64,000 bases of DNA from Streptosporangiales bacterium (GTDB lineage Bacteria; Actinomycetota; Actinomycetes; Streptosporangiales; WHST01). The position numbers were made by a program, and so were the translations under genes. The notes below the pieces were generated by a model. That model was given only the letters and a program-made list of their open reading frames with translations, searched no databases and had not been told where the DNA came from. The stretch lies in contig WHTA01000016.1 in NCBI GenBank assembly GCA_009379825.1, forward strand, positions 32,224 to 96,223, given 5' to 3'. The first letter of the stretch is position 1, and every line of letters begins with the position of its first letter. This document shows, piece by piece, positions 5,870 through 18,503 of this stretch.

Positions 5870-7354
5870 ATGGCGGTCGTGGCCATCGACGCGGGTACGA
5901 CGATGATCAAGGCGGTTGCCTACGACGCCGAAGGCACCGAGCTCGCCATGACCCGCCGCCCGACCGCGGTGACCAGGCCGCGTCCCGGCCACGCGGAGCA
6001 GGACATGGGGGAGGTGTGGGACGCCGTCATGTCCTGCATCCGCTCGGTGCTCGCCGAGCTGGCCGAGCCGGTCGACGCGCTCGCGTTGACGGCACAGGGC
6101 GACGGCTGCTGGCTGGTTGATTCCGACCTCAGGCCGACCGGGCCCGCTGTGCTGTGGAACGACGGCAGGAGCGAGGACATCGTCGCCGGCTGGCGGGCCG
6201 GCGGCGTGCTCGACGAGGCGTTCAGGCGTACCGGGTGCATGGGTTTCTCCGGTCTGCCCAACGCGGTGCTCACCTGGCTGGCCGAGCAGGACCAGGACCG
6301 GCTGCAACGCTCCGCCGCGGCGTTGACCTGTGGCGGCTGGCTGTTCGCCAACCTCACCGGTGAGCTGGCGATGGACCACTCCGAGGCGGCGGCGCCGTGG
6401 CTGGACGTGCTGCAGGGTACGTACGCCGACGAGCTGCTCGACCTGTACGGCATGCCGTGGGCGCGCCGGCTGTTGCCGCCGCTGCGGCACGACGACGACC
6501 GCGTCGCGCCGGTGCGGCCGGAGGCCGCAACCGCACTGGGGATCGCGCCTGACACCCCGGTCGTGCTTTCGTCGTACGACATCGCCTCGACGGCGATCGG
6601 CGTCGGCGTCGTCGACGACCGGCAGGCGTGCAGCGTGCTCGGCACCACGTTGTGCACGGAAGCGGTCACCAGCCAACCGGACCTGCGCGCCCGGCCGGTA
6701 GGCCTGACCATCCCGCTCGGCGCGCCAGGCAGGTACCTGCGGGCGTTCCCCACGCTCGCCGGGTGCGACGTGCTCGACTGGAGCGCCGAGCTGCTCGGGC
6801 TGGCCGACGCCGCCGAGCTGTGTACGTTGGCCGCGACCGCGCCCGCCGGCGCCAGGGGCCTCAGCTTCCTGCCGTACCTGTCGCCGGCCGGCGAGCGCGT
6901 GCCGTTCCTCGACGCCGCTGCGCGCGGCTCGTTCGCCGGGTTGTCGTTCGACCACGACCGGGCCTGCGTGGCGCGGGCGATCGTGGAGGGGTTGACGTTC
7001 GTGATCCGCGACTGCCTGGCCGAGTGTCCCGTGGCACCCGTCGAGCTGCGGCTGTGCGGTGGCGGCGCGAACAGCGCCGAGTGGGGCCAGCTGATCGCCG
7101 ACCTGACCGGCGTGCCGACGCTACGTCCCGCCGACGCCGAGGTCGGCGCGAAGGGCGCGTTCCTGATGGCACAGGTGGCCACCGGGCGGGCCACCGACCT
7201 GCCGTCAGCCGTCGCCGCGTACGTGCGGCCGGCCGGTTCGTACGAGCCCGCGCCAGACACGGTTGCCAGGTACGACGAGCTGTTCGCCGCGTTCCGTGCC
7301 GCACGCGCGCATGCCGCGGCCGACTGGCACCGGTTGCGCGAGGTGGGCGCATGA
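5870..7354 (+). CDS. FGGY-family carbohydrate kinase (xylulokinase-like)
   Basis: N-terminus VAIDAGTTMIKAV, with a C-terminal FGGY domain (LRLCGGGANSAEWGQLIADLTG). Confidence 0.9.
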   Translation: MAVVAIDAGTTMIKAVAYDAEGTELAMTRRPTAVTRPRPGHAEQDMGEVWDAVMSCIRSVLAELAEPVDALALTAQGDGCWLVDSDLRPTGPAVLWNDGRSEDIVAGWRAGGVLDEAFRRTGCMGFSGLPNAVLTWLAEQDQDRLQRSAAALTCGGWLFANLTGELAMDHSEAAAPWLDVLQGTYADELLDLYGMPWARRLLPPLRHDDDRVAPVRPEAATALGIAPDTPVVLSSYDIASTAIGVGVVDDRQACSVLGTTLCTEAVTSQPDLRARPVGLTIPLGAPGRYLRAFPTLAGCDVLDWSAELLGLADAAELCTLAATAPAGARGLSFLPYLSPAGERVPFLDAAARGSFAGLSFDHDRACVARAIVEGLTFVIRDCLAECPVAPVELRLCGGGANSAEWGQLIADLTGVPTLRPADAEVGAKGAFLMAQVATGRATDLPSAVAAYVRPAGSYEPAPDTVARYDELFAAFRAARAHAAADWHRLREVGA

Positions 7355-8835
7355 CGGTGGCGGGGAGCGCGCCGCTGTACGTCGGTGTCGACCTGGGCAC
7401 GCAGAGCGTGCGCGCGTTGTGCGTGGACGGCGCCGGCGTCGTGCACGGCGCGGGCAGTGCCGCCCTGACCAGCCGGCGCGACGAGGAGCGGCACGAACAG
7501 GACCCGCGGTCGTGGTGGCAGGCCGTCGGTGCCGCCTGCCGGCAGGCCGTCGCCGGCGTGCCGGCGGACGCGGTCGCGGCGGTCGCGGTCGACGGCACCT
7601 CGGGCACCGTGGTGCTGACCGACGCCGCCGGCGAACCGCTGTCGCCCGGCGTGATGTACGACGACACCAGGGCAGCCGACGAGGTCGCCGAGATCAACGA
7701 GGTCGGCGCGCCGTTGTGGCAGGCGCTTGGCTACGGGCGGGTGCAGGCCGCGTGGGCGCTGCCCAAGCTGCGCAAGCTGTTGCGCGACGCCACGGGTGCG
7801 CGGGTCGCACACCAGGCCGACTTCGTCGCCGCGCGCCTGGCGGGCCGTCCGGTGGCCGCCGATACCAGCAACGCGTTGAAGAGCGGATGCGACCTGCGTG
7901 CCGTCGCGTGGCCGGCGGAGGTGTTCGACCGGCTCGGCATACCGCTCGAAGCGTTGCCCGACCTCGTCCTGCCTGGCACCGAGGTGGCCACCGTCGGTGC
8001 CGCCGCGGCCGCCGAGACCGGGCTGCCGGAGGGCGCGTCGATCATCGCCGGCATGACCGACGGGTGTGCCGCGCAGCTCGGCGCCGGCGCGCTCGACGTC
8101 GGTTCGTGGAACGCCGTCCTGGGCACCACGCTCGTGCTGAAGGGCGTGACCGGTGAGCTCGTGCACGACCCGCTGGGTGCCGTCTACTCGCACCGCGCGC
8201 CCGACGGCGGTTGGCTACCCGGTGGCGCGTCGAGCACCGGCGCCGGTGCGCTCACCGCCCGGCTGGCCGGCTGCGACCTGGACGCCCTGGCCGACCGTGC
8301 CGGCGGGTACGAGCCGAGCTCCGCGCTGGCGTACCCGCTGGCCGCCAGCCGCGGCGAGCGGTTCCCTTTCGTCGCACCGGAAGCCACCGGGTTCGTAATC
8401 GGCGACGCTGTGGACGACGTCGACCTGTACGCCGCGCTTGTGCAGGGCATCGCCTACGTGGAACGGCTGTGCTTCGACTACCTCGACCTGCTGCAGGCAC
8501 CGACATGCGGCCGGCTGGTGCTCACCGGCGGGGCCGCGCGCAGCCGCTACTTCTGCCAGTTGCGCGCAGACGTGCTCGGTCGGCCGGTGACGCTGGTGGA
8601 CAACGCGGAACCCGCGCTCGGCATGGCCGTGCTCGCCGCGTACGGCGTGGGCGCGGGCTCGCTGCCGGAGTGCGCGTCGCGCATGGTGCGGGTGACCGAG
8701 ACACTCGAACCGTCCGACCGTCGTGGTGAGGTGTTCAAGGAACCGTACGCACGACTGGTGGACGAGCTTCGCGTACGTGGTTGGCTCGATGCGCGCACGG
8801 CCGCGCACGCGTTGGAAAGGGCATCGGCTCGATGA
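7351..8835 (+). CDS. FGGY-family carbohydrate kinase, second paralog
   Basis: Start ATG 7351 overlaps the upstream stop (ATGA). Motifs include LYVGVDLGTQSVRAL and LVLTGGAARSRYFCQLRADVLG. This gene lies inside the longer track ORF 6628..8835. Confidence 0.9.
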   Translation: MTVAGSAPLYVGVDLGTQSVRALCVDGAGVVHGAGSAALTSRRDEERHEQDPRSWWQAVGAACRQAVAGVPADAVAAVAVDGTSGTVVLTDAAGEPLSPGVMYDDTRAADEVAEINEVGAPLWQALGYGRVQAAWALPKLRKLLRDATGARVAHQADFVAARLAGRPVAADTSNALKSGCDLRAVAWPAEVFDRLGIPLEALPDLVLPGTEVATVGAAAAAETGLPEGASIIAGMTDGCAAQLGAGALDVGSWNAVLGTTLVLKGVTGELVHDPLGAVYSHRAPDGGWLPGGASSTGAGALTARLAGCDLDALADRAGGYEPSSALAYPLAASRGERFPFVAPEATGFVIGDAVDDVDLYAALVQGIAYVERLCFDYLDLLQAPTCGRLVLTGGAARSRYFCQLRADVLGRPVTLVDNAEPALGMAVLAAYGVGAGSLPECASRMVRVTETLEPSDRRGEVFKEPYARLVDELRVRGWLDARTAAHALERASAR

Positions 8836-9455
8836 CTTGCGTAGTCCTCGTCAGGCACGGCGAGACCGTATGGCACGCGGAGAACAGGTACACGGGCAGC
8901 ACCGACGTCGCGCTGACCGACGAGGGCAGGGCGCAGGCCCAGGCGCTCGGCCGGTGGGCGAAGCACGCCGAGCTGGCCGCCGTGTACTGCTCCGACCTGT
9001 CGCGTTCCCGCGACACCGCGCTGCCCGCCGCGGAGGCGACCGTCCTGCCGCTGCGCGAGGAGCCGCGGCTGCGGGAGCTCGACTTCGGTTCGGGCGAGGG
9101 GCTCACGGCCGACGAGATGCGGGAGCGGTTCCCCGCGGCGCTGCAGGCGTTCCGCGCCGACCCGGCAGGCAACCCGCTGCCAGGCGGCGAACCTCCGGCC
9201 GCCGCGGTGGAGCGCGGCCTGGCCGCGTTGCGGGAGATCTGCAAACGGTGGCCGGACGACCGGGTCCTCGTGGTTGTGCACTCGACCTTGATCCGGCTGC
9301 TGCTGTGCGAGCTGCTCGGCCGGTCGATCAGCGACTACCGGCGGCTGTTCCCCTCCGTACGCAACTGCGCCATCACCGAGCTGTCGTTCGACGGCGAGCA
9401 GGTGGCGCTGCTCCAGTACAACGTGCCGACCGACGCTGAGAGGACCACCCGATGA
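8832..9455 (+). CDS. Histidine phosphatase family protein (phosphoglycerate-mutase-like)
   Basis: Catalytic RHG motif at the N-terminus (VVLVRHGETVWHAENRYTG). The ATG at 8832 overlaps the upstream stop (ATGA). Confidence 0.85.
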   Translation: MTCVVLVRHGETVWHAENRYTGSTDVALTDEGRAQAQALGRWAKHAELAAVYCSDLSRSRDTALPAAEATVLPLREEPRLRELDFGSGEGLTADEMRERFPAALQAFRADPAGNPLPGGEPPAAAVERGLAALREICKRWPDDRVLVVVHSTLIRLLLCELLGRSISDYRRLFPSVRNCAITELSFDGEQVALLQYNVPTDAERTTR

Positions 9456-10474
9456 CCCGGATCCTGGCCGCGGGCGACCACTTCGTGCTGCCGTCCATGC
9501 TGCGGTCGGCGCTCGTCGAGGAGCTCGGTGCCGACGCCGACATCGCCGAGCTGACGCTGCCGTGGCCGGTCGAGCCGTTCGGCCGGGTCGCCGAGGTCGA
9601 CGAGGCATCCGGGAGCGAGGACGAGCTCATCGAGGCGTTGTCCGGTGTCACCGTGTGCGTCACCCAGATGGGGCCGATCACCGAGCGCGTGCTCGCCGCC
9701 AGCCCGGACCTGCGGCTGTGCTGCGTCGGCCGCGGTGGCCCGGTGAACGTGAACCTGGCCGCCGCGTCCGAGCGTGGCGTGGCCGTCTGCAACGCGCCCG
9801 GCCGCAACGCCACCGCGACCGCGGAGCACACGGTCGCCCTGATCATGGCCGCGTTGCGGCAGGTGCCGCAGCGGCAGGCGGAGCTGCTCGCCGGCGAGTG
9901 GCGCAGCGACTACTACCGCTACTGCCAGGTCGGCCCTGAGCTGGCCGGCAGCACCGTGGGCCTGGTCGGCTACGGGGCGATCGGCCGGAAGGTGACCGAC
10001 ATCTTGCGCGGCTTCGGCGCCGAGGTACTCGTCTACGACCCGTACGCCGACCCGTCCGCGGTGCAGGACGTGGCGGAGCTCGTCGCGGACCTCGGCGAGC
10101 TGCTCAACCGCTCGCTCGTCGTCACGTTGCACGCAAGAGCCACCCCGGAGACCACCGGCCTGATCGGGCACGACCAGATCGCCGCGATGCCCGCCGGCTC
10201 GGTGCTCGTGAACGCCGCACGCGGCGCGCTGCTCGACTACGACGCGGTGTGCGACGCGCTGCACAGCGGCCAGCTGTTCGCCGCCGCGTTCGACGTCTTC
10301 CCGGAAGAGCCGCTGCCCGCCGACTCCCCACTGCGCACCGCACCGCGCGTGGTCATGACCCCGCACCTCGCGGGCGCGAGCAGGGACACCGCCCACAACG
10401 CGGCGACCATCGTGGCCGCCGAGGTAGGCAGGTTCACCCGCGGCGAACCCCTGCGCTACCAGGTCAACGGCTAG
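9452..10474 (+). CDS. D-isomer-specific 2-hydroxyacid dehydrogenase, NAD-binding
   Basis: Motifs GLVGYGAIGRKV (GxGxxG), NAARGALLD, DVFPEEPLP and TPHLAGAS. ATGA overlap with the upstream gene. Confidence 0.9.
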   Translation: MTRILAAGDHFVLPSMLRSALVEELGADADIAELTLPWPVEPFGRVAEVDEASGSEDELIEALSGVTVCVTQMGPITERVLAASPDLRLCCVGRGGPVNVNLAAASERGVAVCNAPGRNATATAEHTVALIMAALRQVPQRQAELLAGEWRSDYYRYCQVGPELAGSTVGLVGYGAIGRKVTDILRGFGAEVLVYDPYADPSAVQDVAELVADLGELLNRSLVVTLHARATPETTGLIGHDQIAAMPAGSVLVNAARGALLDYDAVCDALHSGQLFAAAFDVFPEEPLPADSPLRTAPRVVMTPHLAGASRDTAHNAATIVAAEVGRFTRGEPLRYQVNG

Positions 10475-10558
10475 CCGTGTGGCCGGAACCACACGTCTAC
10501 GCGGAACCACCGCCACCAGCTTCCGGTCGGAGGTGTGCGCGTACTCGAAGGGGGAGCG

Positions 10559-10747
10559 GTGAGGAACGACCAGCCGGATTTCAAGTGGTTGAGGAAGGGC
10601 GTGGCCAAGGCCAACGAGGGCATCGCCGACCGACTCAACTCCTCGGACTCGATCTACGAAGGCAACAATCGGCGCGGCAGCAGCGGCCGCGGGTCGCGCG
10701 ACCGACGCGGCGACGACACCGAAGGGCGGTCGCGGTCAGAGCGGTGA
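10559..10747 (+). CDS. Small hydrophilic hypothetical protein (62 aa)
   Basis: In frame with track ORF 10535..10747. GTG 10559 is preceded by GGGGGAG. The C-terminal half is Arg/Gly/Ser/Asp rich. No homology recognised. Confidence 0.35.
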   Translation: MRNDQPDFKWLRKGVAKANEGIADRLNSSDSIYEGNNRRGSSGRGSRDRRGDDTEGRSRSER

Positions 10748-10771
10748 CAGCAGCACCGGCCCCCGACCTGG

Positions 10772-11935
10772 CTACGGATACGGGTGGTTCGGCTCGCGGG
10801 CGGCGAGGGCGAGCGCTACGACCGCGGCGTCCGGTGGTGAGGTGACGTCGCGGCCGGTGGCTGCCGTAAACTTGTGCAACCGGTTCAGCACGGTGTTCCT
10901 GTGGCAGTATAGCTCGCGCGCGGTGTCCGCGAGTGAGCCGGTACGCAGATAGCTGACGACGGCGGCGAGCACCTCGTCGCCGTTGGCCAGCGTGTCGAGG
11001 CCACCGAGCGTGTCGTCGGTGAGGTCGGCGGCGAACTCGCCGAGCTGGGTCGCGGCGACCCTCACCCAGAGGTCGGCCGTGGTGTGCGGCGCCGGCGTGT
11101 CCGCAGGCAGCACGTGCAGTGTGGTCTCCGCCAGCCGCAGTGCTCGCGGCACCTGCCGCAAACCCCGTACGACCGGGCCGACCGCGCACCTGACGCCCTT
11201 GAACCACTGCGTCGCGCCGGTGGTGTGACGTGGCGGCAGCTGCACGATCACCGCAGTGGAGCTGGCCCGCTCGTGCATGTGCAGCCGCACACCGCGGGAG
11301 CTGAGTCGTTGCTGGGCCTTACGCAACGGCGTGAGTTGGTCCGGCGGCAGCGCCACTACGGCGAACCGCGCGTCCTCGTCGAAGTCGAGCACAGTGGCGA
11401 CCTGCCGGCACACGTCGGCGTGCCGGCCGTCGGAGTCGAGCAGGCGTGCGAACCAGCGTGCCCGTTCGTCCTGCTCCGCCCGCGCCATCTCGAGCACCCG
11501 CTGCTGGTACGCCGCGAGCACGCCCATGGAGTGCTGCTCGACGGCTTCCCAGACCCGCGGTCCCTCCACGACGAGACTGGCCATGTCCGCCGGCTGGGCC
11601 CGGTTGTACAACGCCTGCCAGACCACGCGGAAGTCTAGCCGCACGGCGTGGAGCAGCGCGTCGAGCGGCACGCCGGCCTCCGCTCGCGTCCTACCGACGT
11701 CGCTGGAGACCGCGGCGATCCGGTCCGGCACGGGGGTGCCTGTGATGAGCCGCAGGATCAGCAGGAAGCTGCGTCGCGCGTCCGCCCGAATGACATGTCT
11801 GGGGACCGTCTCTGCGGCGTACGGCTCGACCGCGCGGAGCTCCTCGACGAAGTCCTCGACCAACTCCTCGACCTGGTCGAGCAGGGTGCGGGCGAGGCGG
11901 GTCAGGGCCTCGGAAGCTGGTGCTGCGCCTGTCAT
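10772..11935 (-). CDS. PucR/CdaR-family transcriptional regulator
   Basis: C-terminal PucR HTH (ARELYCHRNTVLNRLHKFTAATGRDV). Start ATG 11935 is preceded by TGGAGG with a 5-nt spacer. Confidence 0.85.
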   Translation of the reverse strand: MTGAAPASEALTRLARTLLDQVEELVEDFVEELRAVEPYAAETVPRHVIRADARRSFLLILRLITGTPVPDRIAAVSSDVGRTRAEAGVPLDALLHAVRLDFRVVWQALYNRAQPADMASLVVEGPRVWEAVEQHSMGVLAAYQQRVLEMARAEQDERARWFARLLDSDGRHADVCRQVATVLDFDEDARFAVVALPPDQLTPLRKAQQRLSSRGVRLHMHERASSTAVIVQLPPRHTTGATQWFKGVRCAVGPVVRGLRQVPRALRLAETTLHVLPADTPAPHTTADLWVRVAATQLGEFAADLTDDTLGGLDTLANGDEVLAAVVSYLRTGSLADTARELYCHRNTVLNRLHKFTAATGRDVTSPPDAAVVALALAAREPNHPYP

Positions 11936-11945
11936 CGTGCCTCCA

Positions 11946-11961
11946 ATGTGCAGATGCACAT
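11946..11961. promoter_or_regulatory. Perfect palindrome ATGTGCAgaTGCACAT in the pucR / MFS divergent region; candidate operator
   Basis: Read directly. The 7-bp arms are exact reverse complements. It lies 11 nt upstream of the pucR start. Confidence 0.45.
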
Positions 11962-12027
11962 GTTAGGCGACCAAGATCGGTGCGAACTGCGATTGTCCGG
12001 CGCCGCCGGGTGGAGGACAGTAGCCAG

Positions 12028-13322
12028 ATGTCGACGAGCCGTACGTCCACCGCACAGAGAGCACGACGAACCCACGTACGGTCGCGGTCTGCGCGTTCAC
12101 CGGCACCGCACTCGAGTGGTACGACTACTACGTCTACGGCTCGGCCGCGGCGCTGGTATTCGGACACCAGTTCTTCCCCGACCTGAGCCCGCTCGCAGGC
12201 ACCATGGCGTCGTTCTCGACGTTCGCCGTGGGGTTCGTCGCCCGACCGCTCGGCGCTGCGCTCTTCGGTCACCTCGGCGACAGGTATGGCAGGCGGCGGA
12301 TGCTGCTGATCACCGTCGTCCTGATCGGCGTGGTGACCGGATGCATCGGCCTGCTGCCGGCGTACGCGCAGATCGGCGTGGCCGCGCCCATCCTGCTCGC
12401 GGTGCTGCGGGTGCTGCAGGGCATCTCGGTGGGCGGCGAGTGGAGCGGTGCCGCCACGCTGGCCGTCGAGCACGCGCCGCCGGAAAAGCGCGGTCGGTAC
12501 GGCGTCATGCCGCAGCTCGGCTCGCCGGTGGGTTCGCTGGCCGCCACCGGAGTGTTCGCGCTGGTGAGTCTGCTGCCCGATGCCCAGTTCGAGGCGTGGG
12601 GATGGCGCATACCGTTCGTGCTCGCGTTCCCGCTCCTGCTGCTCGCCCTGTGGGTACGGAGCAAGGTCGACGAGTCGCCGGTGTTCCAGGACATGCTCGC
12701 GGAGCAGCGGGAGCACAAGCTGCCGGTGGTCGAGCTGTTCCGTACCAGCAGCGTGCGGCTGGTCGTGGGCATCGCCGTGTCGTTGCTCGGCATCGGCGGC
12801 TACTACCTGTGCGGCACGTTCCTCATCAACTACGGGGCGGACACCGCACATATCGACCGCACCTGGTTGTTGAACGCGGCGGTGTGCGGCTCCGCCGTCA
12901 ACCTGTGTATCTATCCGCTCTTCGGCCGGCTGGCCGACCGGATCGGCGCCGCACCGATCGCCGTCGGCGGCGCGCTCGTGTCGGCGGTGGCGGCGTTCCC
13001 GCTGTTCTGGCTGGTCGGCATCGGCAGCCCCTGGACGGTCGGCTTCGCGATCGCCGCCGGCGTCGTCGTGGTGTCGGTGAGCTACGCCGCCTGCGGCCAG
13101 CTGCTCAGCGAGACCTTCACCGGCGCCGTGCGGTACTCGGGAGTCGGCCTGTCGTACAACCTCTCTGGCACGCTGAGCGGGTTCGTACCGCTCGGGGCGA
13201 CGGCGCTGCTCGCCGCCACCGAAGGCAGTCTGTGGGTCGTGGCCGGGTTCCTCTTCGTGCTCTCGTTGGTGACCGCAGGCGCCGCCGTCGCGGCACGCAG
13301 ACTGAAGGTGGTCGAACTGTGA
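12028..13322 (+). CDS. MFS transporter, metabolite:H+ symporter (MHS) type, with an apparent 5-prime frameshift
   Basis: Frame 0 reads RTVAVCAFTGTALEWYDYYVYGSAAALVFG...FVARPLGAALFGHLGDRYGRR, but has no start codon after the TAG at 12021. ATG 12028 (MSTSRTSTAQ) is in frame +1. Removing one AG from agagag (12056-12061) joins the two frames. Confidence 0.75.
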
Positions 13323-14338
13323 ACGGAGCTGATGTGAACGCCAGCGATGTCGACGACGGAGCGCAACCGGAGCACTTCTACCACCGGCTGGTGGGTCCCG
13401 AGCCCACTCCCGAGTTCCACGACCCGAGCGAGCTCGAGACGTACTGGGGTCGTCGCTGGGGTGCCGCCGACGAGGTGGGCGCGCTGCGGACGGTCCTCAT
13501 GCGGCGGCCGAGCAAGGGCCTCGCGGACATCACCGCGGACGCCTGGGACCCACGTGCCGGCGCCCTGGTCGACCCGGCCGGACGGTGGTACTGGCGCGGC
13601 GCAGAACCGCCGGACCTGGAGCGCGTCGACGAACAGCACGCCGGCCTCGTCGCCGCGCTGCGCGCGGAGCAGGTGGAGGTCGTCGAGGCGCCCAGGTACA
13701 CCACGGGCTACCCGAAGTCGGTGTTCACCCGCGACCCGTTGCTGACCGTGCCTGGTGGTGCGGTGATCACCAGGCTGGCGCCGCGGATGCGGCGCGGCGA
13801 GGAGGCGTCGGTGACGAAGGCCGTCGCCGAGCTCGGCATGCCGATCCTCGGCACGGTGGTCGGGCACGGGCTCGCTGAGGGCGGCACGTTCGTCAAGCTG
13901 CGCCGCGACCTCGCGGTGTTCGGGCTGTCCATCCGCTGCAACACCGAGGGCGCACGGCAGCTCGCGAGCCTGCTGGAACCGTTGGGGATCGAGCTGACGA
14001 CGATCACCCTGCCCGGCTACACCATCCACGTCGACGGCCAGTTCCACATGGTCGCCGAGGACCTCGCCCTGGCCAACACGCACCGGCTGCCGTACGAGTT
14101 CCTGGCACGGGTGGAGGCGTTGGGCATAAAGGTGATCACGCCGCACCCGGACGAGCAGAGCGCCTGCAACTCGCTGACCGTACGGCCGCGCCGGCTGCTG
14201 TTCCCCGCGCACTGCCCGCGGACCGCCGACCGGTTGACCACCGACGGCGTGGAGGTCGTGCCGGTGGCGTACGACGAGATCCTGAAGAACGGCGGCGGTA
14301 TCCACTGTTCCACCATGGAACTCGTGCGGGACTGGTAG
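13319..14338 (+). CDS. Guanidino-group modifying enzyme superfamily protein (amidinotransferase / DDAH / arginine-deiminase-like)
   Basis: The C-terminus NGGGIHCSTMELVRDW carries the catalytic Cys motif of this superfamily. GTG 13319 overlaps the MFS stop (GTGA). This is the terminal part of track ORF 11648..14338. Confidence 0.8.
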   Translation: MNGADVNASDVDDGAQPEHFYHRLVGPEPTPEFHDPSELETYWGRRWGAADEVGALRTVLMRRPSKGLADITADAWDPRAGALVDPAGRWYWRGAEPPDLERVDEQHAGLVAALRAEQVEVVEAPRYTTGYPKSVFTRDPLLTVPGGAVITRLAPRMRRGEEASVTKAVAELGMPILGTVVGHGLAEGGTFVKLRRDLAVFGLSIRCNTEGARQLASLLEPLGIELTTITLPGYTIHVDGQFHMVAEDLALANTHRLPYEFLARVEALGIKVITPHPDEQSACNSLTVRPRRLLFPAHCPRTADRLTTDGVEVVPVAYDEILKNGGGIHCSTMELVRDW

Positions 14339-14347
14339 ACCTGGTTC

Positions 14348-14968
14348 ATGCGACTCACACCTGCGGAACAAGACCGGCTCACCGTCTTCACGGTGGCGGA
14401 GCTGGCGCGGCGCCGGCGCGCCCGTGGCACCTTGCTCTCCGCGCCCGAGGTCACCGCGCTGGTGACGGACGCGGTGCTCGAGGCCGCGTGGGACGGCGCG
14501 AGCATGGCGGAGGTGATCGCGGCCGGGAGGTCCGCCGTACGGCCGGACGAGGTGCTGCCAGGCGTGACCGCGTTGGTGCGGTACGTCGAGGTCGACGCGC
14601 TCTTCCCCGCCGGCACGGCGCTCGTCGCGATCGACGACCCGCTCGGCACCGAGAGGGGTGACGACGATCCCGGTGCCGTGTTGGTGGCGGACGCCGAGCG
14701 GGAGCCGTACGCCGGGCGCGAGCGGGTCGACGTCGAGGTGACCAACACGGCGGACGTCGACGTGCACGTGTCGTCGCATTACCCGTTCTGGCAAGCGAAT
14801 GCGGCACTGTCGTTCGACCGCGGCCGTGCCCGCGGGTACCACCTGGACATCCCTGCCGGCAGCAACCTCTGCTTCCCGGCGGGCGCGACGGTGGTGGCGC
14901 GGCTGGTGGCGTCGGCCGGCACCGGGCAGGTGCCCGAGCTCGGTCTCGAGCGGGAAGGAGGCGCGTGA
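14348..14968 (+). CDS. ureAB: Urease gamma-beta fusion subunit
   Basis: The N-terminal 100 aa are UreA-like ([27 protein letters not shown]...). The C-terminal part is UreB-like (VEVTNTADVDVHVSSHYPFWQANAALSFDR...LDIPAGSNLCFPAG). Confidence 0.9.
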   Translation: MRLTPAEQDRLTVFTVAELARRRRARGTLLSAPEVTALVTDAVLEAAWDGASMAEVIAAGRSAVRPDEVLPGVTALVRYVEVDALFPAGTALVAIDDPLGTERGDDDPGAVLVADAEREPYAGRERVDVEVTNTADVDVHVSSHYPFWQANAALSFDRGRARGYHLDIPAGSNLCFPAGATVVARLVASAGTGQVPELGLEREGGA

Positions 14969-16647
14969 TGACGTTCGACCGCAGGACCTACGCCTCGGTG
15001 TACGGCCCGACCGTCGGCGACCAGGTGCGGCTGGCCGACACCGGCCTGGTGGTGGAGGTGACGGCCGACGACACCGAAACCGGCGACGAGGCGCTCGGCG
15101 GTTGCGGCAAGACGCTGCGGGAGGGCCTGCTCTCGACGAGCGGTGGCCGGTCGTCGGAGCTCGACCTGATCGTCACCAACGCCTTGCTGCTCGATCCGCT
15201 GCTCGGTGTGCGCAAGACGAACATCGGTGTGAAGGACGGCCGGATCGTGGGTATCGGCCGTGCCGGCTCACCGGACGTGCTCGACGGCGTCGACCTCGCC
15301 GTAGGCCCGCACACGGCCATCGTGCCGGCGGAAGGGCTGATCGCGACGCCGGGCGTGATCGACTCGCACGTGCACCTGTCCAGCCCGGCCATCCTCGACG
15401 TCGCGCTGTCTTCCGGTGTGACGACCGTCGTCGGGATGGGCCTCGGTGGCGTCTGGGACGTGGGCGTCAACCCGAAGCGCAACCTGGACCTGATGATCGA
15501 GGCCTGGCGGCAGGTGCCGGTGAACGTAGCGTTCCTCGCGCGCGGCTCGTCGGTGCGCAGGGCGCCGCTCGAGGCGGCAGTGCTCGGTGGCGCCGGCGGG
15601 TTCAAGGTGCACGAGGACTTCGGTGCGCAGCCGGCGGTCGTGGACACGTGCCTCGCCGTCGCCGACGCGGGCGACCTGCCGGTCGCGTTGCACACCGACT
15701 CGCTGAACGAGTCCGGGCTGCTGCGCGACACCCTCGACGCCACCCGCGGCCGCACCGTGCACGCGTACCACGTGGAAGGCGGCGGCGGGCATCCCGACCT
15801 GCTCGAGATCCTCGCGCAACCGCACGTGTTGGCGTCGTCGACGACGCCGACACTGCCATACACCGTGAACACGGTCGACGAGCTGTTCCCCATGACGATG
15901 ACCGTGCACCGGCAGAACGCGCTGCTGCCCGGCGATATCGACGTCACCCGCAGCCGGATCAGAGCGCACGCGATCGCCGCGGAGAACGCGCTGCACGATC
16001 TCGGTGCGGTGAGCATCGTGAACTCCGACTCGATGGGCATGGGCAGGATCGGCGAGACCATGCGCCGCACCTGGCAGCTTGCCGGGCACGCGAAGGCCAG
16101 CGATGCCGACCACCCCGGTGGGCACGACAACGAGCGGGTATTGCGCTACCTCGCGAAGGTCACCATCAACCCGGCGATCGCCCACGGCATGGCGGCGCAG
16201 ATCGGCAGCATCGAAGTTGGCAAGCTCGCCGACCTCGTGCTCTGGCACCCGGGGTGGTTCGGCGCGAAACCCGAGCTGGTGGTGAAGTCGGGCTTCGTGG
16301 CGTGGGGCCTCAGCGGTTCAGGCGCGGCCTCGACCAGGCTCGGCCAACCGCGCCGTTACCGCGCCTTCTTCGGCGGGATGGGCGGCGCGCCCGCACGGCT
16401 GGCGCACGTGTTCGTCGCGGCCGCTGCGCTCGACGACAGCCGGGCGCGCGGCCAGCTACCGGCCGGCGTGCAGTACCTACCGGTCACCGCGGCCAGACAG
16501 CTCACCAGGAGCGCCATGCGGCACAACACCTACGTGCCACGCGTCGAGGTGCCGAGGGACGGCAGCGCGGTACTCGTCGACGGCGTACCGACCGGCCTGC
16601 CGGCCGCGGAGTCGCTGCCGCTGACCCGCCTACACCACTTCGCCTGA
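14968..16647 (+). CDS. ureC: Urease alpha subunit
   Basis: Metal and catalytic motifs are present: DSHVHLSSP, GGFKVHEDFGA (carbamylated Lys position), LHTDSLNESG, HAYHVEGGGGHPD, NSDSMGMGRIGE. ATG 14968 is 7 nt after GGGAAGGAGG; the track start, GTG 14965, is the alternative. Confidence 0.95.
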   Translation: MTFDRRTYASVYGPTVGDQVRLADTGLVVEVTADDTETGDEALGGCGKTLREGLLSTSGGRSSELDLIVTNALLLDPLLGVRKTNIGVKDGRIVGIGRAGSPDVLDGVDLAVGPHTAIVPAEGLIATPGVIDSHVHLSSPAILDVALSSGVTTVVGMGLGGVWDVGVNPKRNLDLMIEAWRQVPVNVAFLARGSSVRRAPLEAAVLGGAGGFKVHEDFGAQPAVVDTCLAVADAGDLPVALHTDSLNESGLLRDTLDATRGRTVHAYHVEGGGGHPDLLEILAQPHVLASSTTPTLPYTVNTVDELFPMTMTVHRQNALLPGDIDVTRSRIRAHAIAAENALHDLGAVSIVNSDSMGMGRIGETMRRTWQLAGHAKASDADHPGGHDNERVLRYLAKVTINPAIAHGMAAQIGSIEVGKLADLVLWHPGWFGAKPELVVKSGFVAWGLSGSGAASTRLGQPRRYRAFFGGMGGAPARLAHVFVAAAALDDSRARGQLPAGVQYLPVTAARQLTRSAMRHNTYVPRVEVPRDGSAVLVDGVPTGLPAAESLPLTRLHHFA

Positions 16648-17238
16648 CGCGCGGCGTAGCTGTTCGCGTGCGTCGGCGACCCGCTGTTTGGCATCCGGCA
16701 AGGTGTCGTGCGCGTAGGTGCGGACGAGCTGCTCGAACCTGGCACGCGCCTCGTCGGTGTCACCGGTTTGGGACAATGTGAGTCCTCTGTCGTACAGCGC
16801 GGTCGCCACGTACCCACGCATCTTCGGTGTCGGGTCGTCACCGTAGGTGGAGATCACCCGGTCGAAGGTGGCCAGCGCCTCCGGCCAGTTCCCGCATCGA
16901 AGCTCGCGATGCCTTCGTGTACGTCGGCCAACGCAGCCGCCAGCCGGCTGCGTTCGCGGCGCTGCTGGCGGCGCATGGTGGCATAGGTGACGCCAGTCCA
17001 CCGTGCGTTCCCACCGGTGCTCCTCGAGCGTGTGGTGGCGCCAACGCGCGGGCATGGCGCTGACGCGCTCGCGCTGGGGAACCATGACCTGACCGTGGCC
17101 GAGCAGCAGCACCAGCCATAGGGCGACGGATGTCACAAGCCACTGCCAGTGCCCGGTCGCCACCCACAGCCCGACGCCGACGCCGGCTGCGGCGATGCCG
17201 GCGAGCCGCAGCAAGGTCGCTGTCCGGCGTACGTCCAC
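16630..17238 (-). CDS. Hypothetical membrane-anchored protein with TPR-like C-terminus
   Basis: Two N-terminal hydrophobic segments and C-terminal repeats (GNWPEALATFDRVISTYGDD...DTDEARARFEQLVRTYAHD). The middle ~30 codons read more protein-like in another frame (MRRQQRRERSRLAAALADVHEGIASFDAG), so a frameshift is possible. Confidence 0.45.
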   Translation of the reverse strand: MDVRRTATLLRLAGIAAAGVGVGLWVATGHWQWLVTSVALWLVLLLGHGQVMVPQRERVSAMPARWRHHTLEEHRWERTVDWRHLCHHAPPAAPRTQPAGGCVGRRTRRHRELRCGNWPEALATFDRVISTYGDDPTPKMRGYVATALYDRGLTLSQTGDTDEARARFEQLVRTYAHDTLPDAKQRVADAREQLRRASGEVV

Positions 17239-17310
17239 GGGGCGATCCCTCTTTCGGCTCGGGCAGTGGCTCGGCGTGAGGTTATCGTGCTGCCCGGGAG
17301 GTATCCAGTG

Positions 17311-18503
17311 CTATCGCGCCGGTCGCTTCCGCCGCGGCAGCGCGTACATCCGTGCCCACAGTGCTTCGAGCGGGCCCTTGTCGAAGAACCGTAGCCACAG
17401 GTGGGCAGCGGCGCCGACCACCGCACAGAGCACGGCGAAGAGTGCGAGCGTGCCCCACGGCCGCACCGGCCACAGCGTGCTCGCCAGGCCCAGGCCCCAG
17501 CCGTAGCACAGCGCCGAGGCGACGACGTTCTGCAGCACGTAGCACGACAGCGCCATCCGCCCGATCTCCGTCAGCCGGCGCTGGGTGAACCCCGGCTGCC
17601 GCCGCCGCTCGACGAGCATGGCGACCGCGCCGAGCAGGCCGAGTGCGACCAACGGAGCTGTGCCGTAACGCGTCAGCAGGAACGTCGCCGTCGTGCCGAC
17701 GGTGGAGGCGGCCAGGTCGAAGGCTAGCGCGACGGCGCCGACGACCAGCAGGGTGCGCCTGATCCGCGTCCCGTGTGGTTCGAACAGACCGGCGCGGAAG
17801 AGCTTCGCGCCGAGCAGGAACAGCACGATCGACAGCGGCAGGATGAGTAGTGGTTCCGCGCGCAGCAGGCCGGGGTTCTCCAGCCGGAACAGCACCTGCT
17901 GCCACCAGCTGCCATCGGTGTAGAGGGTCACAGAACCGACGTCGCGAGCGGTGGACTCCCCGGAGACGGCGACGCCGGCGACGAGCGCGGCGAGCAGCAC
18001 GACGTGCACCACACCCTGGGACCACAGCCAGATCCGTTGCGCACGCGGTGCTCTGGCCAGGATGACGGCCACGATCATGCCGGTGACCGCGTAGCCCATG
18101 AGCACGTCGAACTCGACCACGAGTACGTAGTGCAGCACGCCGTCGAGCAGCAGCAGGGTCGCGCGCCACGGGTAGCGACCCGGCCAGCTCCCGCCGCGGC
18201 GCGGGGTCGACCGATGCGGATGGCCAGGCCGATGCCGAACATCAGCGTGAGCATGCCGAGGAACTTGCCGTTCGCCAGCTCGCGGAAGAGCCACTCTGCG
18301 ACTGCTCCGGTGTCTGCGGCGAGCGCCGGCGGCTGTCTGAGGAGCATGCCGACCATGCCGGCCGGGTCGGCGAAGATCCAGATGTTCGTGGCGAGCGTGC
18401 CGAGGATGGCGACGCCGCGCGCCACGTCGAGCACGGCGATCCGGGTGGTGCCCAGGGATGCGGGTGTGGCTGCCTGGTCGGCTGCCGCGGGCGCCGGTGA
18501 CAT
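17311..18503 (-). pseudogene. DUF418 (YeiB-like) membrane protein, frameshifted
   Basis: The N-terminus from ATG 18503 (RIAVLDVARGVAILGTLATNIW...LMFGIGLAI) is in one frame. The remainder (WPGRYPWRATLLLLDGVLHYV...) is in track ORF 17311..18939. The junction is about 18180-18205. The span is 1193 nt, not a multiple of 3. Confidence 0.7.

Follow-up and report, generated by a model that had tools for sequence, protein, structure and literature searches.

What does a urease homologue do when it shares an operon with a guanidino-modifying enzyme (GME) and no gene for its own maturation lies nearby? The textbook urease is a nickel enzyme with one substrate and a need for dedicated chaperones, and the question arises from a 64-kb stretch of a Streptosporangiales genome (contig WHTA01000016.1, 71% G+C), here called the window. 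A gene for a PucR-type regulator on the minus strand is followed, on the plus strand, by genes for an MFS transporter, a GME resembling dimethylarginine dimethylaminohydrolase (DDAH), a fused urease gamma-beta subunit (UreAB) and a urease alpha homologue (UreC). This gene set is conserved, a carbamoylase gene takes the place of the urease genes in related operons, and the active site of UreC bears a signature of its own. We give a little under an even chance to a reading in which the operon degrades a carboxylated guanidino compound by deimination, followed by urease-fold hydrolysis of the ureido product. From the comparisons described below we infer the class of substrate, the order of the reactions and the action of the urease homologue on this product rather than on free urea.

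The plus-strand genes are closely packed. The MFS gene (12028..13322) and the GME gene (13319..14338; PF19420, PF02274) share a GTGA overlap at 13319-13322, and a 9-nt gap (14339-14347) separates the GME gene from ureAB (14348..14968; 206 aa; PF00547 1.3e-30, PF00699 2e-22). The ureAB and ureC genes meet in a TGATG overlap at 14966-14970, with GGGAAGGAGG upstream of it, and ureC runs from 14965/14968 to 16647 (559/560 aa; PF00449, PF01979). An earlier note on this DNA had listed the same gene order and junctions, as well as a convergent next gene overlapping ureC, and reading the sequence confirmed all of these. The convergent gene is a TPR-repeat open reading frame (ORF; 16630..17238, minus strand) that overlaps the 3' end of ureC by 18 nt. 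It is not kept in related loci, whose flanks differ, and the unit ends there. Database entries of 100% identity exist for the GME and UreC proteins, and the region is also present in a Logan assembly of run SRR10173838.

The operon and its M20 variant

A profile scan for the GME, with one genome taken per species, returned 80 loci. The complete PucR-MFS-GME-UreAB-UreC block was found in Nonomuraea sp. MG754425, N. cypriaca, N. longispora, N. terrae, N. jiangxiensis and a second Streptosporangiales metagenome-assembled genome. Protein identities in these six sister operons are 55-84% (also given as 67-84%). Because the block recurs in six genomes with unrelated flanks, the arrangement is not due to chance.

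Approximately half of the other GME-orthologue loci (~42 of 82) have an M20 gene adjoining the GME gene or within ~7 kb of it; their sources include Microbacteriaceae, Microtetraspora, Streptomyces, Kineosporia and Solirubrobacterales. The M20 protein passes the hydantoinase/carbamoylase model TIGR01879 (269 bits versus a cut-off of 204) and the allantoate-amidohydrolase subfamily model NF006772, and it is therefore taken to be an amidohydrolase of ureido groups. A parallel comes from Microtetraspora fusca, a member of the same order, in which the genes run PucR-MFS-GME-M20 and the M20 gene stands where the window has UreAB-UreC. Recurrent neighbours of the M20-type loci are polar-amino-acid ABC transporters, a thiamine-pyrophosphate (TPP) enzyme, a D-2-hydroxyacid dehydrogenase and sometimes an agmatinase-family gene. 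The best match of the TPP enzyme is 5-guanidino-2-oxopentanoate decarboxylase, and these neighbours, as judged from their sequence matches, would fit a role in the breakdown of arginine-derived acids.

Two loci containing this GME were noted for their wider surroundings. In Brevibacterium sp. RIT 803 (L053 5996-15690), PucR-MFS-GME occurs without M20 or urease genes and is flanked by a gene for a 412-aa Amidohydro_1 protein and by a hydantoinase-A/S-Me-THD/NCS1-permease cluster. This locus is a third GME context, with a link to ureido/hydantoin chemistry once again. On M. fusca contig BBYK01000048.1 (L002 1-6445, 7209-13273), PucR-MFS-GME-M20-PAD_porph adjoins an operon in which PAD_porph is joined by genes for an ABC transporter of the Opp type and by a fused ureAB that is truncated at the end of the locus. 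The PAD_porph-ureAB combination is, by its predicted proteins, a second and independent pairing of a pentein deiminase with a fused urease gene. No PAD_porph gene was detected by tblastn near clade ureases (described below) in 88 sampled loci, and the only cases of PAD_porph with a urease are this M. fusca operon and, as a candidate suggested by the gene order in PMC3293853, SCO5527.

The DDAH-like enzyme and its probable product

A database search with the GME yielded 953 homologues. Against solved structures, the family profile matches P. aeruginosa DDAH best (1H70, 3RHY; 2e-29), with much weaker matches to 2-nitroimidazole nitrohydrolase, human DDAH-1, arginine deiminases (ADIs) and amidinotransferases. 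The catalytic triad of P. aeruginosa DDAH (E114/H162/C249) aligns with E187/H237/C330 of the GME, which are invariant in 77 family members. Residues D66, R85 and R132 of DDAH, which in the 1H70 structure contact the substrate at its guanidino and carboxylate groups, align with the conserved GME residues D139, R158 and R206. The invariance of the R85 and R132 equivalents indicates an anionic substrate.

The two proteins also differ, with an identity of ~25-30% and ~85 extra N-terminal residues in the GME. DDAH residues D60 and E65 have K133 and R138 as their counterparts in the GME. These exchanges suggest a substrate that differs on its alpha-amino side, and the side of the pocket that binds it is probably different as well. 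The alignment suggests that the GME substrate could perhaps be a 2-oxo, 2-hydroxy or N-acyl acid, which is inference only. In agreement with these differences, the GME scores 80 against a cut-off of 450 on the DDAH equivalog model NF045658 and is not a dimethylargininase proper.

The GMEs linked to urease genes (7) and to M20 genes (34) have 43 invariant columns in common, including the triad, the R85/R132 equivalents and the other aligned residues named above, and a single position separates the two groups. Because the active-site residues are equal in both, the same reaction product is expected. The parsimonious view, based on this alignment, is that both groups would catalyse one and the same reaction on a shared class of substrate, in which a carboxylated guanidino compound would yield its ureido counterpart together with NH3 or an amine. 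Hydrolases of the DDAH/ADI type give ureido products rather than urea, and urea is therefore an unlikely product of the GME.

The length of the GME bears on how tightly it is coupled to the transporter gene. Translation from GTG 13319 or from GTG 13334, the latter with GGAG 5 nt upstream, would yield 334-339 aa. The public annotation is a 316-aa protein that begins 3' of a family-wide N-terminal motif (H22...GPEP; H22, P27 and E28), within 13319-13391. Since the 316-aa call removes this conserved motif, the longer starts, and hence tight coupling, are more likely, and the NCBI start is probably too late.

The urease homologue and its clade

UreC retains all of its metal ligands (H135, H137, K214 at the carbamyl-Lys position, H243, H269 and D355) and its catalytic residues (H216, D218, the flap histidine H315 and R333). 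Canonical ureases have four His, an Asp and a carbamylated Lys at the ligand positions, together with His219, Asp221, flap His320 and Arg336 (K. aerogenes numbering). The earlier note had credited UreC with every nickel ligand and catalytic motif that its author could check. This holds for the ligands, the carbamyl-Lys position included, but not for the motifs, as the flap and three active-site loops are remodelled. In the flap, MVCHH has become MTVHR, with Val in place of Cys; HxEGAGGGHAPD has become HVEG-GGGH-PD, two residues shorter; and SDSQAMGR has become SDSMGMGR. The Ala170 loop (S. pasteurii numbering; GTGPADGT...TPG) reads G-GVWDVGVNP in the window, is ~8 residues shorter and carries a Trp.

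Family models record the same divergence. UreC scores 585 against a cut-off of 680 on TIGR01792 and 581 against 907 on NF009685, passing only the permissive subfamily model NF009686, and UreAB scores 217.5 against 243 on NF009671. By comparison, the canonical UreC of N. gerenzanensis passes with 874 on TIGR01792 and 1086 on NF009685.

These changes define a clade. In an alignment of 202 UreC sequences, 174 carry the double deletion in the Gly280 loop. Each of these 174 keeps every ligand and catalytic residue and has Val for Cys321 and Gly for Ala365 (H. pylori numbering). In S. pasteurii numbering, the elements remodelled in all of them are the loops of Ala170 and Gly280, the flap, and Ala366, which has become Gly. 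In the S. pasteurii urease-inhibitor structures, these are the elements that surround the nitrogens of urea or control access to the pocket. Sister groups of the clade show intermediate states of the signature. The tip of the flap differs between subclades with different gene partners, while the metal-proximal loops are constant throughout. Purifying selection across genera is clear from the 174 sequences.

The window shares the features by which the clade is recognized, namely a fused ureAB with ureC, the Gly280-loop double deletion, a flap reading VH(R/K), a PucR gene in divergent orientation and the absence of accessory genes. Its UreC is 59-84% identical to clade members versus 45-49% to canonical ureases. 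The closest 120 database proteins (61-84% identical) come from Nonomuraea, Actinoallomurus, Streptomyces, Microbispora, Actinomadura, Saccharopolyspora, Janibacter and other genera, and at least 444 stretches in a metagenome scan encode a relative.

Accessory genes were sought by tblastn. The queries were UreF, UreG and UreD of a Frondihabitans plasmid cluster, together with UreG of N. gerenzanensis, and they detect their targets in two canonical clusters used as positive controls. No ureD, ureF or ureG gene was found with these queries in the 64-kb window, in the six sister operons or in 88 further loci of the UreC clade (flanks of up to 8-10 kb). The local absence of accessory genes is thus a property of the clade. 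The statement in the earlier note that the window has no ureD/E/F/G therefore stands for D, F and G, the genes that the queries covered. The further suggestion that the enzyme might rely on no accessory genes at all cannot be claimed, because relatives hold ureG or a canonical cluster elsewhere in their genomes. UreG is annotated in N. terrae, which has this operon type, and in Microbispora sp. CA-102843 a single 9.84-Mb contig holds both UreG and a UreC of the clade. S. coelicolor has SCO1231-1236 in addition to SCO5525-5526 (PMC3293853), and S. erythraea, which has ureABCFGD (PMC2667423), also carries a clade ureC gene.

The common module of the clade comprises divergent PucR, UreAB, UreC and an MHS transporter; the latter is of the organic-acid/zwitterion type, which is no known type of urea transporter. 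Its commonest partner, at 26 of 136 immediate neighbours, is a ~555-aa Amidohydro_3 protein. This protein matches no NCBIfam model at E<=1e-20, and it probably holds the key to the substrate of the clade. Other partners are a PRK08199-type TPP enzyme, an aminobutyraldehyde-type aldehyde dehydrogenase, a copper amine oxidase, a CN-hydrolase and an aminotransferase. The clade is thus set among genes of amine, guanidino and ureido catabolism, and the DDAH-like gene is a partner only in the subclade of the window.

Some further observations concern clade members and their relatives. The Amidohydro_3 gene (L085 9702-11396; also L093, L104, L117 and more than 20 metagenome loci) sometimes lies on both sides of ureAB-ureC. 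We considered whether the TPP enzyme of clade loci is the 2-ketoarginine-decarboxylase-like enzyme of the GME-M20 loci and rejected this, as the former is of the PRK08199 type and the latter is PRK07524-like. On plasmid NZ_CP109047.1 of Streptomyces sp. NBC_00637 (L086 6282-8647), an accessory-less ureA(B)-ureC pair, whose product is 49% identical to the window UreC and has a VHR flap, resides within a cluster of the nonribosomal-peptide-synthetase type with adenylation and condensation genes, phosphotransferases and a 2-oxoglutarate-Fe(II) oxygenase. This setting suggests that the urease homologue might serve in biosynthesis. The N. gerenzanensis chromosome NZ_LT559118.1 (11.85 Mb), filed in a plasmid collection as 'plasmid I', carries a canonical urtABCDE-ureABC-ureFGD cluster and no UreC of the window type (best 46.7%).

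Proposed pathway and alternatives

In the proposed pathway, the operon would be controlled by PucR and its substrate could be, for example, an arginine-derived acid. An MHS-type proton symporter would import the compound, and the DDAH-like Cys hydrolase would turn its guanidino group into a ureido group, releasing ammonia or a methylamine. UreAB-UreC would then cleave the N-substituted ureido group to an amine, CO2 and NH3, the step that the M20 carbamoylase would perform in orthologous operons. Conversion of R-NH-CO-NH2 to NH3 and a carbamate that decarboxylates would amount to the urease reaction with a substituent. For the clade as a whole we propose, with the balance of chances somewhat against us, that its members are not urea hydrolases but accessory-independent urease-fold amidohydrolases for N-substituted ureas, which here would act on the ureido acid made by the GME. 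Coexistence of the clade UreC with a canonical urease in one genome argues for such a distinct role.

The earlier note had proposed that the unit may take up and break down a compound with a guanidino or ureido group. The comparative data, namely the DDAH-like triad, the M20 partner and the catabolic neighbours, strengthen this proposal, whereas the frameshifted transporter weakens it for this genome. The note had also left the urease homologue to act on released urea or on a non-urea substrate, and in our reading the second option is slightly the better one.

Several observations weigh against the pathway proposed here. Every residue needed for urea hydrolysis is conserved, and the correlation between flap and gene partner may simply reflect phylogeny. 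We know of no urease-family enzyme with a non-urea physiological substrate, and no experimental work on any clade member was found in the full-text literature. There are 36 GME loci with neither M20 nor urease genes nearby, and their contexts look heterogeneous. Many clade loci lack a deiminase, and there the substrate would need to be imported as such. A few clade loci have genes of the arginase family, whose enzymes release urea. An Actinoallomurus relative (76%) has an Urt-like ABC system, albeit one that scores well below urea-transporter cut-offs; true UrtA/UrtB adjoin the canonical urease of N. gerenzanensis. Finally, the transporter gene of the window is frameshifted.

The alternative that survives best is that UreAB-UreC is an ordinary second nickel urease, which would act on free urea, be matured in trans by UreD/F/G of a canonical cluster and recover nitrogen from urea that enzymes of this operon or of other loci produce in guanidino-compound catabolism. 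To our knowledge there is no precedent for another substrate, UreC matches solved ureases at ~1e-144 (E=3e-144 to H. pylori UreB, 1E9Y), and its ligands and catalytic residues are kept in 174/174 clade members. Maturation in trans would accord with UreG in N. terrae, with clade UreC plus UreG in Microbispora sp. CA-102843 and with the two cluster types held by S. coelicolor and S. erythraea. Free urea would accord with the arginase-family genes and Urt-like transporter in a minority of clade loci, and the SCO5526 clade has been reported to group with proteobacterial ureEF(AB)CGD ureases (PMC2492869). We nevertheless consider this alternative unlikely, if still a serious contender. No enzyme of the operon is expected to release urea, a carbamoylase fills the same slot in orthologous operons, and the associated transporters are of the organic-acid type. 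In addition, none of ~95 clade loci has ureD/F/G nearby, as canonical clusters do, the loops proximal to the substrate are remodelled, and UreC falls below a curated equivalog cut-off that canonical actinobacterial UreC passes.

A second alternative places the source of urea in the GME itself, which would be a guanidine or methylguanidine deiminase (or amidinohydrolase) that makes urea directly for the urease homologue to hydrolyse. In DDAH chemistry it is the substituted amine that leaves, so that a small guanidine would presumably leave urea; this would give a neat account of the GME-urease pair, and guanidine use by microbes is widespread (PMC11410670, PMC12186494). It is very improbable nonetheless. 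The invariant equivalents of the carboxylate binders R85 and R132 point to an anionic substrate, the transporter is of the organic-acid/zwitterion type, and the usual partner of the GME is a carbamoylase, which would be idle if urea were the product. Moreover, an Rfam scan of 10400-17400 gave no match at E<=1, and hence no guanidine riboswitch.

The transporter bears on the last alternative. Its gene matches the MHS-family metabolite/H+ symporter model TIGR00883 (5.6e-96), and its nearest named relatives are ShiA, ProP, TcuC and KgtP. The start ATG at 12028 is out of frame with the body of the gene owing to a net +2/-1 indel in the N-terminal leader; from this ATG to a conserved AACCC there are 41 nt in the window versus 39 and 36 nt in homologues. 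At 372 aa, the product of the in-frame ORF (12204-13322) is shorter than the homologues, which have 430-437 aa. There is no in-frame ATG, GTG or TTG between the upstream stop (12021) and 12204, and this ORF therefore lacks the first transmembrane helix. The score of 322 bits, below the TIGR00883 cut-off of 443, is due to the ~58 N-terminal residues that are out of frame. The earlier note had listed this gene as a member of the operon; its 5' end is disrupted, with identical sequence in the Logan assembly. That assembly may derive from the same reads.

It is least probable of all that the operon is decaying or silent in this genome with the urease homologue an inactive relic, since, although the frameshift costs the transporter its first helix and both assemblies agree on it, the two assemblies may share reads, which leaves room for a sequencing error, the transporter is intact in six related genomes, the clade is under purifying selection, and GME, UreAB and UreC are complete and have every catalytic residue. 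A small share of the probability is assigned to none of these readings.

The regulator gene (10772..11959, minus strand) encodes a PucR/CdaR-type protein (HTH_30 1.6e-14, GGDEF_2 1.7e-8; precomputed hits to RsbRD_N and PucR-like_N). Its longest ORF begins at GTG 11959, and its likely start is ATG 11935 (387 aa), with GGAGG upstream. In 21 related loci, a homologue is transcribed away from the MFS or ureAB gene. A palindrome, TGTGCA-GA-TGCACA (11947..11960), occupies the PucR/MFS intergenic region, and its half-sites TGTGCA/TGCACA, with an N2 spacer, are invariant in 7/7 operons of this type. Because the surrounding bases vary, this palindrome is a candidate PucR operator. No sigma-70 promoters or intrinsic terminators were detected, a result that is uninformative at 71% GC.

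Directly upstream of the PucR gene (5870-10474) resides an operon with genes for two FGGY kinases and a His_Phos_1 phosphatase that ends in one for a D-2-hydroxyacid dehydrogenase, and a Rhodococcus locus (L034 10998-12506) has an FGGY kinase directly after MFS-GME. The proximity of FGGY kinases may be coincidence, or it may hint at a polyol or sugar-acid part in the substrate. The upstream dehydrogenase was considered as a member of the unit, as it loosely clusters with the dehydrogenase that recurs in GME-M20 loci; it was rejected because in the window it is the last gene of the FGGY-FGGY-phosphatase operon, which the Nonomuraea loci lack.

Whichever explanation applies, the operon is real, conserved and uncharacterised, and the reading of its urease homologue as a urease-fold ureidohydrolase is plausible but unproven. 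The clade is widespread in soil actinobacteria and is routinely annotated as 'urease subunit alpha'. If its members work without chaperones or on substituted ureas, then urease gene counts in nitrogen-cycle and biomineralisation surveys would be inflated. The operon would also represent a new route for the degradation of guanidino compounds, and the enzyme a natural experiment on re-engineering the active site and metallation of urease. The ureido compound would be the first physiological non-urea substrate of the urease family, and the urease fold would be a third one for ureido-group removal, after CN-hydrolase and M20. Should UreAB-UreC be an ordinary second urease, there would still be a conserved, unstudied guanidino-compound operon, with a GME plus M20 or urease and a candidate PucR operator.

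Comparison with known systems

A urease without adjacent accessory genes is not in itself new, as clusters with only ure(AB)C have been noted in S. coelicolor and S. avermitilis since 2008 (PMC2492869, PMC3293853, PMC5489568). Clusters of the SCO5525-SCO5526 type resemble the window in their fused gamma-beta gene with an alpha gene, in the lack of adjacent ureD/E/F/G and in the presence of a canonical cluster elsewhere in the genome. The Streptomyces clade members are 64-67% identical to the window UreC and have the same signature. These clusters are on record as genomic observations only. The Streptomyces loci that were sampled differ in gene partners, with Amidohydro_3, MFS and/or a TPP enzyme after ureC, whereas the window has a DDAH-like gene before ureAB. 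In the full-text literature, which leaves subscription journals mostly uncovered, we found no functional study of the clade and no account of its active-site signature or of GME-M20 or GME-urease operons.

Canonical nickel ureases (K. aerogenes, S. pasteurii, H. pylori and N. gerenzanensis) share the fold, subunits, ligands, carbamyl-Lys and catalytic His, Asp and Arg with the window. In contrast, the window UreC shows 45-49% identity to them, with a Val flap, shortened Ala170 and Gly280 loops and no accessory genes nearby. True urtABCDE genes adjoin the N. gerenzanensis cluster but not the operon of the window. The H. mustelae iron urease UreA2B2 (3QGA) is likewise a second paralogue; it functions independently of accessory proteins and has retained the loop motifs of canonical ureases. 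It hydrolyses urea and is an example that accessory independence is possible in the urease fold; a special kinship with it was rejected (460 bits versus 485 for H. pylori UreB).

A parallel in logic is the pathway of the agmatine deiminase AguA and the N-carbamoylputrescine amidohydrolase AguB, in which a pentein-fold deiminase makes a ureido compound that a second hydrolase converts with release of CO2 and NH3. The GME-M20 operons appear to follow the same two-step scheme of deiminase and ureidohydrolase. What would set the operon of the window apart from both is its second enzyme, which has the urease fold rather than that of a CN-hydrolase or an M20 protein.

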